64,000 nucleotides of DNA from an uncultured Acidobacteriota bacterium (GTDB lineage: Bacteria; Acidobacteriota; Vicinamibacteria; Vicinamibacterales; UBA8438). The stretch spans positions 320,001-384,000 of the forward strand of contig CAJWLU010000001.1 of assembly GCA_913043225.1 (NCBI GenBank). Reading direction: 5' to 3'. Position 1 is the stretch's first letter, and each line of letters opens with the position of its first letter. The position numbers and the translations under genes were made by a program. Positions 1 to 8,252 of this stretch are shown piece after piece. Below the pieces are notes generated by a model. It ran no database searches. It was not told the origin of the DNA and saw only the letters and a list, made by a program, of their open reading frames with translations.

Positions 1-810
1 CACATGCCGTCGCACACCTGGAACGAGGTGGGCCGTTGGGGTGATGGCGTCCGCTCGAACCTGCGCGCCTGGCACTCGGACCAGATGTCCGAGTTCGGAA
101 CCGGGATCGCCATTTACCCAACCCACAACCTGCACATGCTGCTCTTCGCCGCGTCGATGGACGGGCAAGGCGCGATCGCCATCCAGGCAGGCAAGGATTT
201 CCACAAGCTGACCGGCAACAGCGTGCATCATGCCCTAACCCTAATCCGCTTCGGAAGATTCGACGAAGTCCTCAAGGTTACCGAGCGCCCTGACAGTGAG
301 GTGGCCGGCGGGCTGTGGGACTTCGCGCAGGGCTACGCGCACCTGCGTGAGGGCGACGTCGACTTCGCGGAGGTCTATCTGAATCGGGTGAAGGAGCTAG
401 CGGCGACCTCTGAGGCGCAGATGCGGTTCCACCCGGCAGAGACCCTGCTCGGCGTAGCCGCAGGCATCCTCGAGGGCGAGCTCCATCGTGAGGCAAGCGA
501 CCTGAACGCCGCCGAATCCGCGTTTGAGCAAGCCGTTGAGCTTGAGGACAGCCTGGCCTACGACGAACCTGAGCCGCTGCCCTTTGCCGCCAGACACTGG
601 CTGGGGGCGCTCCTCCTCGAACGGGAACGATGGGCCGAGGCGGAGCAGGTGTTCAGAGCTGAGCTCGATGACCACCCCCACAACGGGTGGTCCCTGTTCG
701 GCCTGAAGACGGCGATCGAAGCCCAGGGTCGCACCGACGCCGACGTGGATGCCGACCTCGAACAGAGCTGGGCGCGCGCCGACACCTGGCTGTACACGCC
801 GCGTTATTGA
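1..810 (+). CDS. TPR-repeat protein, 5'-truncated by the window edge
   Basis: Frame is open from base 1 (CAC ATG, giving HMPSH). Helical TPR-like repeats (AAESAFEQAVELED, LGALLLERERWAEAEQVF, HPHNGWSLFGL). Confidence 0.75.
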   Translation, partial: HMPSHTWNEVGRWGDGVRSNLRAWHSDQMSEFGTGIAIYPTHNLHMLLFAASMDGQGAIAIQAGKDFHKLTGNSVHHALTLIRFGRFDEVLKVTERPDSEVAGGLWDFAQGYAHLREGDVDFAEVYLNRVKELAATSEAQMRFHPAETLLGVAAGILEGELHREASDLNAAESAFEQAVELEDSLAYDEPEPLPFAARHWLGALLLERERWAEAEQVFRAELDDHPHNGWSLFGLKTAIEAQGRTDADVDADLEQSWARADTWLYTPRY

Positions 811-1961
811 GACACACCGAAGTCGAGGGGACGACCACGCCAGGTGCTCGTCTTCAGCTCCAGCACGTGGCGATCGGGATCACGCAAATAGAGACTGCGA
901 CCTCCCTCCGGCCAGTCGACTACGCTCTCGATCTCGATACCCGCGTCGTGAAGACGCGACCGCCAGCGGTCCAGATCGGCCGGGCGGATACCGAACGCTA
1001 GATGCTGCTGCCCGCGACCGTCCGAGGACGGAATCGTTCCATGTGGCGTCACCGTCGGTTCGACCGACGCGCCCTGCTTGAATAACAGCAGCACTTGATT
1101 CTCGGCCACGTCGAGGGCCGCCATCCGCTCCATCGGCTCCATCGCGCGGGTGAAGCCCAGCACGCGCTGATAGAACTCAACCGACCGACCGAGATCGGCG
1201 ACGTAAAGCGCCGTCTCGGTCACCGCAACTACCTTCTCCTCGGCTGCCAGAGCCCGCTTCTCTGCCTGCTCCTCCTCACGCACGCGCGTGAGCGCGGACG
1301 CGATGAGCCCGGTCGGCACCGCCACCACCCCCAGCCCCGCCATCAGAACCAGGAACGTGAACATACGCCCGCCCGCCGTCACGGGGAAGGCGTCTCCGTA
1401 GCCGACTGTAGTTAGGGTGACCACCGCCCACCAGAGACTGTCGAAGACCGACGCAAATGTCTCCGGCTGAGCGGCGTTCTCGAAGTAATGGATGCCCACC
1501 GCGGACAGATAGATGAGCACCATGGCGGTGCCCAGAAAGGCGATCAGTTCCTCGCGCACGAGGACGGCAGCCCGTCGGAACCTAGCCATCGCGTCGCCGT
1601 AGCGGGCCAGTTTGAGGATGCGGGCCAGACGGAACAGCCGCAGCGCGCGGATCGAACGCAAGTCGACCCCCAGCGCCACATAGAACGGCAAGATCGCCAG
1701 CAAGTCGACCACGCCGAAGAAGCTGAAGACGAACGTGAGCTTCCGGTCCGCCACCAGTAACCGGAGCAGATATTCAATGGTAAACACGACCACCGAGAAC
1801 ACTTCCAGGCGGCGAAGGAGTTCTAGGGTCTCCGGTGACAGATCCGGCAGGGTCTCGATCGAGAACGCGGCAATGGTGAGAAGGATGACCCCCACCACGA
1901 CGGCGTCGAAGAGACGACCGGCGAAGGTATCGGTATCCTCGACGATGCGCTTCAGACTCAC
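804..1961 (-). CDS. 6TM voltage-gated K+ channel (ion transporter family) fused to a C-terminal VOC/glyoxalase-like domain
   Basis: S4 motif LRSIRALRLFRLARILKLARY and selectivity filter TTVGYGD. Continues in frame into VOC motifs ETALYVADLGRSVEFY, HLAFGI and GGRSLYLRDPDRHVLEL. GTG at 1961 chosen because it clears the upstream gene and follows TACACT. Confidence 0.85.
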   Translation of the reverse strand: MSLKRIVEDTDTFAGRLFDAVVVGVILLTIAAFSIETLPDLSPETLELLRRLEVFSVVVFTIEYLLRLLVADRKLTFVFSFFGVVDLLAILPFYVALGVDLRSIRALRLFRLARILKLARYGDAMARFRRAAVLVREELIAFLGTAMVLIYLSAVGIHYFENAAQPETFASVFDSLWWAVVTLTTVGYGDAFPVTAGGRMFTFLVLMAGLGVVAVPTGLIASALTRVREEEQAEKRALAAEEKVVAVTETALYVADLGRSVEFYQRVLGFTRAMEPMERMAALDVAENQVLLLFKQGASVEPTVTPHGTIPSSDGRGQQHLAFGIRPADLDRWRSRLHDAGIEIESVVDWPEGGRSLYLRDPDRHVLELKTSTWRGRPLDFGVSQ

Positions 1962-2010
1962 GCCGGAAGTGTATCGCGGGCAAGCTGGCCCGAGACGCGA
2001 ACGGAGGGGA

Positions 2011-3099
2011 TCAATACAGGAGCATGGCGACGACAAACATCAGGATGGCCAGCATCACCACCCACTGCCAGACCTCCTGCTTATCGTCGGACGGGATGAG
2101 CTGGAACGAGATACTGCGGTGGCTGTCGACCACGTTGCGGAGGAAGTTGGCTGATTCGAGCTGCTGGCTGTCCATAGAAAAGGTGCGCCCGCCAGTGCGC
2201 TGCACCACCATGTTGATGCCATCCTGCTCCAGCCGGGTCCGCTGCCCGTCGAGGTCGGCCTCCAACGTCTCGTCATAGTCGACACCACGAATGTAGTCGA
2301 GCAGCACGGTGTCCACGTTGACCCCAGTCCGGCTCCCGATCCCGATCGGGTAGATCGCGAGCCCCCGGCGGTTGAACTCACCGAGAGCGATATCCAGACG
2401 GCTCCGCTGTTCGGCGTCGATCAGAAAGTCTCCGTCGGTGAACAGCAGGACCAGACGGTCGCTCCGCTCCTCGGGCTGCCAGTCGTCCTCACCCGACTCG
2501 AACCGATCCTGATTGTCGAGCGACAGATAGATCGACTCGAACGCGGTCGCGATGTCGCTGTCCCAGGGAAACGCATCGCCAGACAGTGTCAACGGCGGAC
2601 CGATCCGCCCCACCTCTTCCACGAACCGTTCAGCGTTGGACGACAGGTGGACCCGACGTAGTGCCGTGGTGCCCCAAACGAACACGGCGGTACGGTCGCC
2701 CGGCGTCAGCAGGTCTTGCGTGTACAGACTCAGCGCCTCCCGCACGGCGAGGTCGAGTCGCGATGGACCAAGGTCCTTGACCCACATGGAGGCCGAGGCG
2801 TCGACCGCCACGATGACGTCCACGTCGCCCCGCTTGAAGCTCGACGCACCGTAGACCCAGAACGGCCTCGCGGCGGCCACCGCCACGAGCGTGAGTGCTG
2901 CAATCGCGAAGAACCAGAACTTAATGTGACCGAACAGGGGGTAGTTCGACCCTTCGCTGCGGGCCGGTCTCAATTGCAAGCGGAGCGCAAAGACGACCAG
3001 TCCGAAGGCCAGCAGCAGCCCAGCGATCGGCACGATAGCCAGATACTCCGGGTTGGCGAACTCGACACTGTCCCGGAACAGGCTGGTGATGGCGTCCAC
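2011..3099 (-). CDS. Membrane-anchored VWA domain protein (MxaL/BatB-like)
   Basis: N-terminal F-x-x-P-x-Y-L followed by two TM helices. MIDAS motif VAVDASASM...SRL and LFTDGD. C-terminal TM helix. Confidence 0.8.
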   Translation of the reverse strand: MDAITSLFRDSVEFANPEYLAIVPIAGLLLAFGLVVFALRLQLRPARSEGSNYPLFGHIKFWFFAIAALTLVAVAAARPFWVYGASSFKRGDVDVIVAVDASASMWVKDLGPSRLDLAVREALSLYTQDLLTPGDRTAVFVWGTTALRRVHLSSNAERFVEEVGRIGPPLTLSGDAFPWDSDIATAFESIYLSLDNQDRFESGEDDWQPEERSDRLVLLFTDGDFLIDAEQRSRLDIALGEFNRRGLAIYPIGIGSRTGVNVDTVLLDYIRGVDYDETLEADLDGQRTRLEQDGINMVVQRTGGRTFSMDSQQLESANFLRNVVDSHRSISFQLIPSDDKQEVWQWVVMLAILMFVVAMLLY

Positions 3100-3134
3100 C
3101 GCTCGGCTTCCTCAGACTGCAGTCCGTCTCAAGG

Positions 3135-3800
3135 TCAGCCGCGGCGGCGGCGGACCGGGGTGCCCTCGCCCTTCATCTGCTCGAGCTCGGGCGGCTCGAT
3201 CTCGCGGGGCGCCTCAAGGGCCCGACGCACCGCCTCGGGGTTGCTGGTCAAGTCGTAGTTCCACTTGTAGTCGAACCGGTCGGTGAGGTCGCTCCGGAGC
3301 GCCCGCTCGTAGTCCGGGTTGATGGTCTCCATCACCTCCACGATGATGGCTTCCTTGAGACGCGCGGCATCCGGGTCTTCACCGTCGATGGCGCGATAGC
3401 GCTCCCGTGCCAGCAGGAACTTCGCGTTCGCGAGCAGATGCGACGCCCGCGCATCGTCCACTTCATCAGACAGATCGTCCACGACCGTCTGGAGGTCGCC
3501 AGTCAGATAGCTGTAAGACGCCTGCTGCAAGAAAGCATCCTGAAAGAGATAGGAGTCAACCAGCTGCTGGACACCCCAGGCGCGGCTCCCTTCGTAGAAC
3601 GCTGACACCTCGGCGAGTTGCTGCTCGGCGGTCTCGTAGTCGGCGCGCTGCACGCTATCGCTGAGCCCCTCCAGGTTGTCGTAGAACACAGCCAGGCTGC
3701 GGGACGGCACCCACACGGCGACGAAGAACGCCACCGCCAGCACGAGGCCGATGAGATAACGGAAGGAATGTTCCTTGTCGAGCAGGTCTGTCAGTCGCAT
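3135..3800 (-). CDS. Membrane-anchored TPR-like protein (MxaK-like)
   Basis: N-terminal TM helix, helical body, and YERALRSDLTDRFDYKWNYDL, which resembles the MxaK/BatC 'Y..AL......AKYNLEL' motif. Lies between two VWA genes. Confidence 0.6.
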   Translation of the reverse strand: MRLTDLLDKEHSFRYLIGLVLAVAFFVAVWVPSRSLAVFYDNLEGLSDSVQRADYETAEQQLAEVSAFYEGSRAWGVQQLVDSYLFQDAFLQQASYSYLTGDLQTVVDDLSDEVDDARASHLLANAKFLLARERYRAIDGEDPDAARLKEAIIVEVMETINPDYERALRSDLTDRFDYKWNYDLTSNPEAVRRALEAPREIEPPELEQMKGEGTPVRRRRG

Positions 3801-3846
3801 GTCGTCTGTTCAGGACCGGCCGCTGAGCCGGCCTGACTCCTCGATT

Positions 3847-4977
3847 CTAGGGGGTCGTCCCCCAGAGCAGCTCCGAAACGAATCCGAGCGGTATCCCGAC
3901 TACCAGTAGTCCCATAGCCACGAGTAGGAATCTGGAATAGATGGGCACTCTCAGAGCACGGTGCTTCAGTTCGACCCGCACCGCTTCACGCTCGTCGATC
4001 GCCTGGTAAGCGCGCAGCAGGCTGTCCTCGCTGGTGACGTCGAAGTAGTCGCCGCCATACTCCTGAATCTGGGCCACCAGCTGCGGCACACTCGGATTCA
4101 GGAAGCTCGCGGTACGGGCATCACTCGTGTTGATGTAGATCAAATACGGGACGATGTTGCGCTTGCTAAGCTCTTCGAACTCCGCATCCGGGAACTCGTC
4201 GACCGCGGCATCGGTGATGATGAGCACGGCACGATTCTGATTCCGTCCGCGCCCTTGAACCGCTTCGTCCCGGTCAAAGTGCTTCACGATGTCCTGCAGC
4301 GGCCGGATGATGTTGGTGTCCCCTTCGGCGGGAATAATCCGCACCTTGTCCCGCGGCACCACCATCGCCTTATCGAGCCGCTGGGTCATCACATACGGCG
4401 CATCCCAGACCTGGTAGTAGTAGAGCTCGTCGTCCATGACGAAGTCATCCACCATGTAGGGATAGGTCGAGAACAACCAGAGCGACACACGGTCGTTCTT
4501 CTCACGACGCATCTCGAGAAACTCGAGGTGCGCGTCTCGAGCCACCTCGGCCTTCGACTTGTTCGTATCAGGGAACTCCCATGCCATCGAACCCGACGTG
4601 TCGACGAGATCGATCCGCACACGCGACTCGACCGACCCACTCACTTCCTCAGTCGCAGTAAGAAACGGATCGGCCACCGAGACGACGAGCATGACGAGCG
4701 CAGCTGCGAGCAAGACCTTCGGCGCCGTGTGCAGCACGCGGACCCAAAGCCGTTTCCGGTGCCTCGCCTCGATGAGATGGCCAGAGTGCTGTCGCGCATG
4801 CCGCTTGCGGGTCGAGGCTAGCCGCACCAGCGTCAGAGCGAGAACCACACCGACCGCCACCGCCAGCGCCACGGCCATACCGACATCGCCGTACCGCACT
4901 TGGGCATAGTCGGTCTCGAGCAGCTCGCGAAAGCCGCTATCGAGGAAGGCGACCAGCTCGTTCCATGGCATCAACAT
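3847..4977 (-). CDS. Membrane-anchored VWA domain protein (MxaC/BatA-like)
   Basis: Two N-terminal TM helices. MIDAS motif DLVDTSGSM, GDTNI and LIITD. C-terminal TM helix. Confidence 0.8.
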   Translation of the reverse strand: MLMPWNELVAFLDSGFRELLETDYAQVRYGDVGMAVALAVAVGVVLALTLVRLASTRKRHARQHSGHLIEARHRKRLWVRVLHTAPKVLLAAALVMLVVSVADPFLTATEEVSGSVESRVRIDLVDTSGSMAWEFPDTNKSKAEVARDAHLEFLEMRREKNDRVSLWLFSTYPYMVDDFVMDDELYYYQVWDAPYVMTQRLDKAMVVPRDKVRIIPAEGDTNIIRPLQDIVKHFDRDEAVQGRGRNQNRAVLIITDAAVDEFPDAEFEELSKRNIVPYLIYINTSDARTASFLNPSVPQLVAQIQEYGGDYFDVTSEDSLLRAYQAIDEREAVRVELKHRALRVPIYSRFLLVAMGLLVVGIPLGFVSELLWGTTP

Positions 4978-4993
4978 GAGATCGCTCGCAGGT

Positions 4994-6115
4994 CTAGCCG
5001 CCGAACATGCCCTTCACCGAGTTGAGCAGCCGGACGTGCGGCCGCAGGTCGGCGAGGGCTCCCGAGATTGCGTCCGCGTCGGCCGACGGGTTGTCGACCG
5101 ACGGCGCGCCTAACTCCAATCCTCGCTGGTACGTCACCAGGAAGTCGGTGAGCACGGCCAGTGCCTCCTTACGGTGGCCATCATCGAGACCGGCCACGAA
5201 CCGCTGGATGCCGAGCGCCGTGTCCCCCGAATTGAGGTCCGACAGGTCGGCCTGCAGGTAGTCGCGAAGCGCCAACACCAACCCTCGCTGGACCTCGCGG
5301 ACTCGGTCCCCTTCGGCGCCGGACGGCAGATCCTGCAACCCCCCCAGCGCCCGGCCCACGGCCCGCCGCGCCTCCCAGATCGATGGCTGGATCGGAATCT
5401 GCGCCTCGATCTGGGCAAGCTCGTCCTCTTCCTGCTGCTTCTCGACCGACAAACCCTTCGGCTTGCGGGCCAAGCGAACCAGCATGACGAGCCAGAGCAC
5501 CAGCGGCAGCGGCGCGACGGTCCAGGCCATTGTCCGGAAGAAGGTCGCTTGATTGGCGAAGCTGCCCAGCTCGATCGTGTCGCGGATGTCGAGCAGTGGC
5601 TCGTCGGTCACCGAGGTGACATACCGCACTAGCCCCTGTCCACCGTCCACCTGCTGCACCTCGGCGTCCTCGATATCTTCACCGAGGTCGCGCACCAGGT
5701 AGTAGAAGCTGAAGTTCGGGAGCACGTAGGTCATCTTGTTCGGGTCAACCAGCCTGAACCCGTAGATGAAGTCCCAGATGTGCTCGTCCTCGACGCGGGT
5801 CTTCTCCACCGTCAGCGAAACGCCCTCGAAGGGATGCACCGGCAGGGTCTCTGGTGCCACCCGATCCTCCAGCACGATGATCTCCTGCCCATCGTCGATC
5901 AGGTCGGGGAACCGCACCCGATACCGCTGGGTGATGAGGTCGCCGGTCTTCACCACCGTCGGTTCCAGCTCGAGCGTCTCGACCCGCACCGGGCCCATGG
6001 GCGCATCGATCGCGTCAGGCGGCTGGGCCAGCAGGCTGGTCGGAAGCAACAGAGCGAAGGCAAGTGCGAACGCCGACGTGCGTGTCATGTTCACCGGTTG
6101 TCCATCCCTGGTCAT
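4994..6115 (-). CDS. Secreted or membrane protein in the MxaA position of the cluster (alternative start 6088)
   Basis: Signal peptide (SAFALAFALLLPTSLLA-Q), beta-rich domain starting VKTGDLITQRYRV, single TM helix (WTVAPLPLVLWLVMLV) and helical C-terminus. This matches MxaA-like topology and position. Confidence 0.55.
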   Translation of the reverse strand: MTRDGQPVNMTRTSAFALAFALLLPTSLLAQPPDAIDAPMGPVRVETLELEPTVVKTGDLITQRYRVRFPDLIDDGQEIIVLEDRVAPETLPVHPFEGVSLTVEKTRVEDEHIWDFIYGFRLVDPNKMTYVLPNFSFYYLVRDLGEDIEDAEVQQVDGGQGLVRYVTSVTDEPLLDIRDTIELGSFANQATFFRTMAWTVAPLPLVLWLVMLVRLARKPKGLSVEKQQEEDELAQIEAQIPIQPSIWEARRAVGRALGGLQDLPSGAEGDRVREVQRGLVLALRDYLQADLSDLNSGDTALGIQRFVAGLDDGHRKEALAVLTDFLVTYQRGLELGAPSVDNPSADADAISGALADLRPHVRLLNSVKGMFGG

Positions 6116-6126
6116 CGATGTCCGAT

Positions 6127-7044
6127 CTAGCGAGCCGTGCGAGAAATCAGGAACTTGGGCAACTCCTCGATGTGGTTCTCTGGCGTCAGCACGACCGAGT
6201 CGATCCCCGCCCAATACTTCAACTTGTATTGCAGCGTTTCGCGTGACTCCTCGATCCGACGACGGATCGCTCCAGCCTTCCTGGCAGAGATCACCGTCTG
6301 TTTGCCGGTCTCCATATCCGAGATCCGGATGTAACCCAGGCGGCTCTTGACCGAGAACTCCTCGGGGTCGTCCAGAATGAGCACGATCATATCGTGCTTC
6401 GCCGCCACGGTGCTGAGGAGCTTGAAGTCGATTGCGTCGTGGTCGTTGACGAGATCGACCAGGTCGGTGAGCACCACGACCGAGTGCCGCATCTTCAGTC
6501 TAGCCAGCATGAAATCGATGGCCACCTTGAGATTCGCCGGACGCCGCGACGGGAACTCCCGCTCGAGCTTCAGCTTCTCGAAGATCTGATGCGCCATGTA
6601 AAAGACCTGCGAGCTGCCCATCTTGGGCTTCATGTAGAGCTCGATCCGATCCGAGTAGCCGAGCAACCCGACCGGGTCACGCACGTTGGACCGGGTCAAC
6701 CCGATGTTGCCCAGCAGATCCAACATCAACAGTGCCTTGTTGGACCGTTGGGATACCTGAAACAGCGTCGAGTAGGAGAGGTCGCAGATGATGAGCGTCC
6801 GCATCTCCTTGGGCTCCATCCGCTCGATCCGGAACAGCTTCTCCGGATACGTGCGCATGCTCAGGTTCCAGGCCACGTCCTTGAGTGGCTGGCCCGGCCG
6901 CCACTGATCGACGCCGACGATGTCGTAGCCGGCCCCCTTGAACCCGCTCTTGTGCTCGCCGAAGTGGATGCTCGTGGAGGGCTTGCGCGCTCGGATCCCG
7001 TGCTTGATGTCACGAAACCTGGCGTAGACCTCCTCTACTTCCAA
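6127..7044 (-). CDS. DUF58 family protein (MxaS-like partner of MoxR)
   Basis: GEHKSGFKGAGYDIVGVDQWRPGQ..VAW, ICDLSYS and VVVLTD motifs. Overlaps the moxR stop codon. Confidence 0.8.
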   Translation of the reverse strand: MEVEEVYARFRDIKHGIRARKPSTSIHFGEHKSGFKGAGYDIVGVDQWRPGQPLKDVAWNLSMRTYPEKLFRIERMEPKEMRTLIICDLSYSTLFQVSQRSNKALLMLDLLGNIGLTRSNVRDPVGLLGYSDRIELYMKPKMGSSQVFYMAHQIFEKLKLEREFPSRRPANLKVAIDFMLARLKMRHSVVVLTDLVDLVNDHDAIDFKLLSTVAAKHDMIVLILDDPEEFSVKSRLGYIRISDMETGKQTVISARKAGAIRRRIEESRETLQYKLKYWAGIDSVVLTPENHIEELPKFLISRTAR

Positions 7045-8150
7045 GGAGGAACCTCCATGTCGCGGACGATCTGTTGCAAGAGTTCGTCCTTGTCGACGGA
7101 GAACTCCATACCTTCGCGCAGGACCAGCCGGTGGGCGAGCACCGGCCCCGCGACCTCCTTAATGTGATCCGGCGTGACCTGCAGGTCGCCGTTGAAGAAG
7201 GCGAACGTCCGCGCCACGGCCTCAAGGTGAAAATGGACACGAGGCGAGATCCCGACGCGGATATACTCCTTCACCGCCCGGGCGGCCCGTCCCTGGACCC
7301 GATGGGGACGCGTGTTCCGGATGAGCCGGACCTTGTACTGCGCCCCGTATTCAGACATCGTGACGTTGTCGTAGATATAACGGGCAATATCGAGCACCTC
7401 GTAAAGATCGGTCAGCTTCTCGACCTTCCGTCCCACGACGTTGCCGGCGGTGATGTTGTACTCGTCCTCTTCCCTCTCCGGGTCCATCATATTGATGGAG
7501 ATGGTGGTGCGGTCGAGCTGCGCGACAGGGTTGGCGAAGGTGCCTTCTTCCTCGCCGAAGATATTCTCGGTGCAAATGACCATGAAGAACCGGGGTCCCG
7601 TGATGTCACTGAAGTCACAGGACAGCGGGAAGAGGGGCAAGACCTTACCCTCGGCCAGGTTCCCGTAGTCCGAGCTAAGAGTGGCCGAGCTCTCCTCCAT
7701 GCCCTCGAGCACGGCCGCCTTGGTTTTGCCTGACAACCGGTTGTCCTCGTCAATGAGGACGATGTGGGCCATCAGCTTGCCCGGTTTGAAGACGAGCTTG
7801 CGGCTGCCGTCGGTCTCCTCGACGATCGTCTCGTAGCCGAGGATGTCCTCGGGCATGTAGGTCGGCAGCCCCTGGATCCGTTCGAACTTCGCGTCGATCG
7901 CCATGGCGCAGGCGCTAACCAGGTCGGTCTTCCCGGTGCCGGTCGGCCCCCTGAACATGACGTGCGGCTGCCTGAGCAGCTTGCTCTGGCTAAGCTTGTC
8001 CGTGTAGGGGAGCAGCGTAAAGAACGCCCAGGACAGGATGCGCGCGGCATCGTCGAGACCATAGAGCCACTTGGTCGACTCCTTCTGGAACCGCTGGACC
8101 ACTTCATTGGCGCGGTCGAAGTCGATAGTGCGTGTCGGTTGAACGGCCAT
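7035..8150 (-). CDS. moxR: MoxR family AAA+ ATPase (MxaR-like)
   Basis: Walker A GPTGTGKT, RIQG.P..MPEDILG, Walker B VLIDEDNR, AQLDR, GISPR and VLAHRL. ATG at 8150 follows GAGAGGA. Confidence 0.88.
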   Translation of the reverse strand: MAVQPTRTIDFDRANEVVQRFQKESTKWLYGLDDAARILSWAFFTLLPYTDKLSQSKLLRQPHVMFRGPTGTGKTDLVSACAMAIDAKFERIQGLPTYMPEDILGYETIVEETDGSRKLVFKPGKLMAHIVLIDEDNRLSGKTKAAVLEGMEESSATLSSDYGNLAEGKVLPLFPLSCDFSDITGPRFFMVICTENIFGEEEGTFANPVAQLDRTTISINMMDPEREEDEYNITAGNVVGRKVEKLTDLYEVLDIARYIYDNVTMSEYGAQYKVRLIRNTRPHRVQGRAARAVKEYIRVGISPRVHFHLEAVARTFAFFNGDLQVTPDHIKEVAGPVLAHRLVLREGMEFSVDKDELLQQIVRDMEVPPWK

Positions 8151-8223
8151 GTAATCCTCTCGCGCTCCGGGCGCCTCGAACATGGCAGGCGGCCGCTCGC
8201 ACGACCGGCCCCTGCCGGCGGTA

Positions 8224-8252
8224 AGTGTGGCCGCGTGCGACCACACCGTCAA
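8224..8252 (-). promoter_or_regulatory. Putative sigma70 promoter of the moxR cluster, overlapped by a palindrome
   Basis: Minus strand reads TTGACG-N17-CACACT. Near-perfect palindrome GTGTGGCCGC-GT-GCGACCACAC at 8225-8246. Confidence 0.4.

Follow-up and report, generated by a model that had tools for sequence, protein, structure and literature searches.

At one end of the window (the whole 64,000-nucleotide stretch of DNA analysed here), a voltage-gated K+ channel appears to run on, without a stop, into a glyoxalase/VOC domain. Two questions follow: whether the two halves are really one protein and, if they are, why a channel should carry a domain of this kind. The frame begins with GTG and encodes a single protein of 385 residues, P0001, in which Pfam finds Ion_trans at residues 16-231 (E 3e-33, 115.6 bits vs a cut-off of 25) and Glyoxalase (PF00903) at residues 250-369 (E 4e-12, 47.2 bits vs 20.6). 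All full-length homologues start at the residue equivalent to window position 1961. A longer frame from a TTG at 2036 was ruled out because it overlaps the upstream vWA gene. A promoter scan found nothing. The features of the locus are:

1..810, plus strand: 3' part of a convergent gene for a TPR protein, a synteny marker (open reading frame, Pfam)
804..1961, minus strand: fused gene, a six-TM voltage-sensor K+ channel with a C-terminal VOC domain (stop-free frame, homologue starts, Pfam, model)
807..1232, minus strand: VOC domain, residues 244-385, 3R4Q-like (Pfam, sequence search, fold search)
858-860, minus strand: predicted metal ligand E368 (alignment with FosA)
1002-1004, minus strand: predicted metal ligand H320 (alignment with FosA)
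1215-1217, minus strand: predicted metal ligand E249 (alignment with FosA)
1218..1286, minus strand: linker, residues 226-248, a charged helix and then a hinge (model, alignments)
1242..1376, minus strand: S6 and its predicted helical extension, residues 196-240 (AlphaFold2 model)
1392..1412, minus strand: K+ selectivity filter TTVGYGD, residues 184-190 (sequence, alignment)
1599..1925, minus strand: voltage-sensor domain S1-S4, residues 13-121, with E53, F60, E63, R67 and D86 (alignment, model)
1602..1658, minus strand: S4, with R102, R105, R108, R111, R114, K117 and R120 (alignment)
2011..3099, minus strand: upstream vWA-domain gene, which ends a same-strand MoxR/vWA-type run, a synteny marker (open reading frame, Pfam)

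The TPR gene overlaps the end of the fusion gene by 7 bases. On the other side, the MoxR/vWA-type run (window 2011-8252, minus strand) comprises two vWA genes, two membrane proteins without annotation and, identified by eye, an AAA ATPase-like and a DUF58-like gene; the channel gene follows on the same strand. The gap between vWA and channel genes (window 1961-2011) holds small genes that differ by lineage (L002:319-1467, L090/L114:1140-2500, L044:889-1473): GNAT, an ArfB-like gene with a 2Fe-2S-like gene (recognised by eye), DUF4287/DUF5655, or none. The host genome, G000, is 96% complete, and the labelled sequencing runs with DNA matching the source are mostly marine or seawater metagenomes. 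Across its 3.85 Mb there are 25 Glyoxalase-domain matches, several of them in tandem.

The probability that the union is an assembly or frameshift artefact is negligible. Contigs bridge the junction (window 1200-1300) in all four runs compared (X2, X3, X4 and X5), among which are two divergent strains. Run X2 shows no differences and may be close to the source, the X3 contig differs from the window stretch at 40 positions, and X5 holds the entire stretch in one piece with 47 differences and no gaps. X4 is an RNA library whose contig also bridges the junction, although transcription is not thereby demonstrated. In addition, full-length fusions from several sources occur in four 90%-identity clusters beyond the strain, with 82 members, fragments included (P0002, 17; P0003, 7; P0004, 2; P0009, 56). 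The bridging contigs and these full-length proteins together rule out the artefact reading; with the single frame and the two Pfam domains, they confirm the one-protein architecture proposed in a first-pass annotation. Databases label the named members just 'voltage-gated potassium channel'. The fusions related to P0001 (clade I) are 67-98% identical to it and form one clade on the channel tree (100/97; 98 with L146 added). Thus, the fusion is not peculiar to one strain whose relatives keep two separate genes, though one relative, G099, has a split form. A second apparent two-gene case, G009, was rejected: its halves lie at contig ends and are nearly letter-for-letter those of the full-length fused P0019/P0009 cluster.

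The channel half carries the intact S4 and TVGYGD filter attributed to it at first reading. S4 has seven basic residues, one at every third position, and these and the TTVGYGD filter are invariant in the eight aligned clade I fusions; the counter-charge set of S2 and S3 (E53, F60, E63 and D86) is also present in the alignment. Pfam, fold search and an AlphaFold2 monomer model (93-row alignment, mean pLDDT 86.9) agree on an Ion_trans fold with six TM helices. The modelled channel half matches Kv4.3 (7w3y; Z 19.5, rmsd 3.3, 244 residues aligned), and the channel sequence matches Kv4 at E 2e-27 and the KvAP entries 2a0l and 1orq at about 1e-15. None of the chains listed by the fold search matches both halves. 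In the Pfam search of P0001 we found no T1 domain and no RCK or cNMP-binding domain; residues 250-372 show only VOC families. The protein is predicted from these matches to be a voltage-gated K+ channel, likely opened by voltage.

Its C-terminal domain is most similar to 3R4Q, which is both the best sequence match (E 1.6e-12) and the best fold match for the VOC half (Z 17.0, rmsd 2.2, 137 residues aligned). This Agrobacterium VOC protein, deposited as lactoylglutathione lyase, shares the E-T-A-L-Y first strand and the hydrophobic fourth strand but is a standalone soluble protein. A literature search found no paper on the entry, and its name is therefore not a demonstrated function. By sequence and model, the domain is a member of the 3R4Q-like subfamily with three predicted ligands. 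Resolution of the VOC tree is poor, and the fused domains do not come out as one clade on it. In four tandem two-VOC proteins (P0005, P0007, P0008 and P0010), one half is 55-62% identical to the fused domain.

Identification as glyoxalase I was rejected. The GloA model NF050074 scores 22.6 bits vs a cut-off of 165, and TIGR00068 is absent among the matches listed. GloA has four ligands, H/E/H/E, including a Glu in the fourth strand; the corresponding strand here, residues 289-295, reads QVLLLFK, with Leu at the place of the second Glu.

The putative E/H/E metal ligands pointed out in the first-pass annotation are all present. In the sequence alignment E249, H320 and E368 fall on His7, His67 and Glu113, the Mn ligands of FosA (PMC10779102). 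The predicted ligands are invariant in the eight aligned clade I proteins; among 29 unfused VOC rows, the His and last Glu are kept in all, as is the first Glu when read by eye, 21 of the 29 rows being misaligned at the first VOC strand. One cluster member, P0050, has a predicted ligand change from H to Q. The three-ligand pattern is shared with FosA, FosB and FosX, but the first ligand of the fused domain is Glu. Membership of the Fos families was also rejected, with scores of 30-40 bits against cut-offs of 170-310 (best, 39.9 vs 180); the fosfomycin-binding K93, S97 and Y65 are not kept, and Y103 is. Three of the six residues of the FosA K+-loop (E98, G99 and S101; PMC10779102) align with E352, G353 and S356, which is only a lead because an E-G-x-S loop also occurs in FosX.

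These assignments bear on an earlier proposal that likened the protein to Kef K+ efflux coupled, through glutathione adducts, to methylglyoxal detoxification. The domain fails the glyoxalase I comparisons. In G000, the bacillithiol genes BshA and BshC score over cut-off, GshB and GshF have no match in this 96% complete genome, and neither Kef (TIGR00932) nor GloA is over cut-off anywhere in it. The glutathione-based analogy is therefore unsupported. Moreover, Kef is a CPA2 antiporter, described as regulated via KTN/RCK domains and glutathione (PMC10224563, PMC5790435), whereas P0001 is a PF00520 channel. BshC does not track the fusion, since three relatives whose channels are unfused or split have it too, and it did not turn up in the two fused genomes that are 77% complete.

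The linker reads as first quoted, a charged helical stretch, and in the model S6 continues as a helix to residue 240, followed by a low-confidence hinge (241-245) and a two-unit VOC fold. The S6 proline and the first ligand lie 32-33 residues apart in clade I; in a second group of fusions, clade II, the spacing is 34 in three of four proteins and 25 in the fourth. In lineage g1 the linker is the most constrained part of the protein, with one non-synonymous vs seven to eight synonymous changes (three pairwise comparisons, not independent). Several of these features would suit a gating module in which two VOC dimers under the pore bind a metal, a bacillithiol adduct or electrophile, or K+, pull on S6 and shift voltage gating; by analogy, they would take the place of RCK in Kch and MthK, with another fold and two-fold symmetry. 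We regard such a module as possible but doubtful. It owes its standing to the attachment directly after S6 via a predicted continuous helix, the constrained linker, the near-constant spacing, the two independent origins described below and the precedent of Kch, a 6TM channel described as Zn2+/Cu2+-activated via its C-terminal domain (PMC13563188). The three K+-loop counterparts also point this way, as do the host's BshA and BshC genes, given that PMC5790435 describes a putative K+/H+ antiporter of Bacillus that is gated by bacillithiol. PMC12332018 reports successes as well as failures in coupling K+ pores to foreign sensor domains. Other observations temper the gating idea: unfused orthologues end inside the linker stretch, just after S6, the first half of the linker helix is already present in unfused channels, the hinge is modelled with low confidence, and the E-G-x-S loop is not specific.

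The linker also raises the question of a second product. In P0009-type genes it contains an in-frame ATG, nine codons upstream of the first ligand and at the position where standalone VOC genes begin, and in G000 and G001 it has purine-rich codons and a GTG shortly before the equivalent place. An internal start could then yield, beside the full-length fusion, a soluble VOC protein that completes the dimers or acts as free enzyme; internal-methionine expression of RCK domains, and their coupling through linkers, are described in PMC4565861. We consider two products very unlikely. The linker lacks an ATG in the three g1-type genes examined, GAG-rich runs follow simply from Glu codons, and four tethered VOC domains can pair among themselves.

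A profile search over 1.84 billion representatives returned 30,625 matches, the best 150 of which include one channel–VOC protein, P0167 (386 aa). It belongs to clade II, whose four clusters (P0167 and P0202-P0204) contain 30 members with 52-100% identity across the linker and VOC domain; a partial one carries the label Fibrobacteraceae. The clade II channel lies on a separate branch of the channel tree (99/96), and its VOC domain is of another subfamily, with H/E/H/E ligands, that keeps the Glu in the fourth strand. On this comparison of sequences, the channel–VOC architecture arose twice, independently, and more such fusions may exist, since only the best 150 of the 30,625 matches were covered. 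This convergence is the strongest hint of function, and it lends some weight to the tentative view that VOC domains were recruited at least twice as cytoplasmic gating modules of bacterial voltage-sensor K+ channels, two metal-loaded dimers directly coupling K+ flux to a metal, K+ or bacillithiol-electrophile signal. It is weakened by the promiscuity of VOC fusions. That the VOC domains of the two clades come from different subfamilies and differ in their ligand sets also speaks against a gating module. The 59 matches to the clade II linker–VOC region include 4 channels, 16 SemiSWEET, 14 HAD, 4 GNAT and 1 MFS protein.

The SemiSWEET/PQ-loop proteins with a clade II-type C-terminal VOC domain make up sixteen clusters (P0213, P0216, P0220, P0222-P0224, P0228-P0235, P0240 and P0244), four of them named Reichenbachiella, and the MFS–VOC fusion P0226 has a member named Cystobacter. 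Transporter–VOC pairing thus recurs, and we found no paper on it in the literature searched. Two related channels, P0065 and P0092, each a single-member cluster, end in a Spo0M or a chorismate mutase domain. The ESM Atlas returned single-domain clusters alone, which says little about the absence of fusions.

The history of clade I suggests how the fusion was formed. Twelve of 104 family genomes have a channel orthologue: three are fused (G000, G001 and G009), one is a split relic (G099) and eight have no VOC match in the flanking sequence covered. Five of these eight, including the frameshifted G100, keep the TPR neighbour, and their channel runs only a few residues past S6. The best 80 of 522 metagenome loci comprise five intact fusions, one fusion with a frameshift in the VOC domain (L146) and 74 loci without a VOC match, 10 of which have fewer than 300 bases downstream. 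The channel is therefore normally without a VOC domain. Samples of 400 class and 400 order genomes contained no further clade I fusions. The G099 channel has its stop at the same place as its relatives. Overlapping this stop is the ATG of a separate VOC frame, which is shifted by one base relative to the fusion (a hand count gives 52 rather than 51 bases from one equivalent codon to the other) and ends after about 46 residues. G099 branches first among g15 on the channel tree, and g15 and g18 together are sister to the fusion clade with moderate support (92/89), so channel and VOC probably already lay next to each other in the common ancestor. The proposed merger would have begun with a standalone 3R4Q-type VOC gene landing immediately downstream of the channel gene, whose stop would then have been removed by a single-base change. 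The overlap of the VOC start with the channel stop in G099 and the P0009-type linker ATG at the standalone start both speak for such a merger. Against this order, the best 80 of 522 loci include no intact pair of separate channel and VOC genes, and G099 could thus have arisen by fission instead of preserving the ancestral arrangement.

Where the VOC domain was lost, a GC-rich palindromic REP-like sequence fills the place between the channel and TPR genes (L082:4400-4640 in G099; L043:2205-2316). Close standalone VOC genes (53-61% identical) occur in six family genomes, in unrelated contexts and none with a channel orthologue. G047 was the only unfused VOC locus with a nearby channel match among a set of such loci examined. 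It was rejected as a linked pair: its VOC gene lies ~0.6 kb before a frameshifted channel of another family (L081:6500-7600, 40% identity), which is taken as a coincidence.

Selection bears on whether the domain is kept for a purpose. Between G000 and G001, dN/dS values are 0.084 (channel), 0.025 (linker) and 0.107 (VOC domain), with 0.041 for the TPR control. Channel, linker and VOC domain are all under purifying selection. The fusion persisted across five lineages, and dS between G000 and G009 exceeds 1.5. It is nevertheless conceivable that the domain is a mere passenger in the course of being lost, one that was acquired by accidental read-through, has been tolerated since and is now decaying in some lineages. 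The truncated VOC frame of G099 and its absence in the relatives of that genome, the L146 frameshift, the H to Q change in P0050 and a VOC dN/dS of 0.58 between P0009-type strains would all fit. We think this improbable, because VOC dN/dS is 0.07-0.14 in all between-species comparisons, the ligands are invariant in eight of eight proteins and the within-species value reflects a small count (7 non-synonymous and 4 synonymous changes).

We favor, with a probability of about 50%, a voltage-gated K+ channel with a tethered and probably still active VOC enzyme that exerts at most a fixed bias on gating. The tetramer would conduct K+ on depolarisation, like the unfused 240-aa orthologues. Homodimers are described for FosA and prokaryotic GloI, and in most of them the sites lie at the interface (PMC10779102, PMC5412262); if the fused domains behave likewise, four tethered VOC domains would form two dimers joining the S6 ends. 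They would pair as domain-swapped dimers, two per tetramer, hanging below the pore with a divalent metal on E249, H320 and E368. The domain would be kept by selection for its own chemistry, possibly bacillithiol-dependent handling of an electrophile, as no unfused copy of its subfamily was found in G000. If gating were affected at all, cross-linking of the S6 ends would impose a fixed bias, and the VOC domain would be no dedicated ligand gate.

Several pieces of evidence favor the tethered enzyme: (i) The channel normally lacks the domain and the sister lineage discarded it, which also counts against gating. (ii) Enzyme function alone explains selection on the genome's only close copy. (iii) The voltage sensor shows no degeneration, and all the ligands conserved in standalone relatives are present in the VOC domain. 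(iv) VOC domains fuse to many partners, and the channel family has also gained Spo0M and chorismate mutase tails. (v) Linker sequences differ between lineages, and the upstream gap holds varied small genes. The frameshift within the VOC domain of L146, which may be a sequencing error, is a further point against a gating role. The constrained g1 linker, the near-constant spacing, the persistence over five lineages and the two origins stand against the tethered-enzyme reading.

Both halves are well-known folds; their union, narrow in distribution and evolved twice, is apparently undescribed. We found no paper on the architecture in the literature searched (subscription journals lie mostly outside its coverage, and supplements are excluded) and no solved structure in the PDB, which agrees with the initial remark that no characterised channel of this kind was known. 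If the VOC domain did gate the channel, it would add a further class of ligand sensor for bacterial K+ channels, an enzyme-as-sensor gate beside RCK and cNMP domains in which a four-fold pore meets a two-fold sensor, and a one-protein analogue of glyoxalase/Kef coupling. Even without gating, fused, split and channel-only orthologues at one locus provide a series for studying how channels gain regulatory domains and for assigning a function to the uncharacterised 3R4Q-like VOC subfamily.

Among known systems, the closest in kind are the bacterial ~240-aa 6TM 'ion transporter' K+ channels (PF00520), whose characterised relatives include KvAP, MVP and KvLm. P0001 shares with them the full S1-S4 charge set, the TTVGYGD filter and the S6 glycine/proline hinge, and the solved folds nearest to its channel half are Kv4, Kv2 and Kv1; it scores far below the cut-offs of the MVP and Kch NCBIfam models and, unlike the 240-aa channels, has a 140-aa C-terminal VOC domain. 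Kef of E. coli and KhtSTU of B. subtilis, which mediate electrophile-activated K+ efflux, offer a conceptual likeness in combining K+ flux with thiol-dependent electrophile detoxification, but they are antiporters and their glyoxalase is a separate protein. The RCK-gated channels Kch and MthK also carry a cytosolic domain on the end of the inner helix via a helical linker, and Kch is likewise 6TM. Theirs, however, is an RCK fold assembled into an octameric ring, whereas here the fold is VOC and the four domains are predicted to form two dimers.
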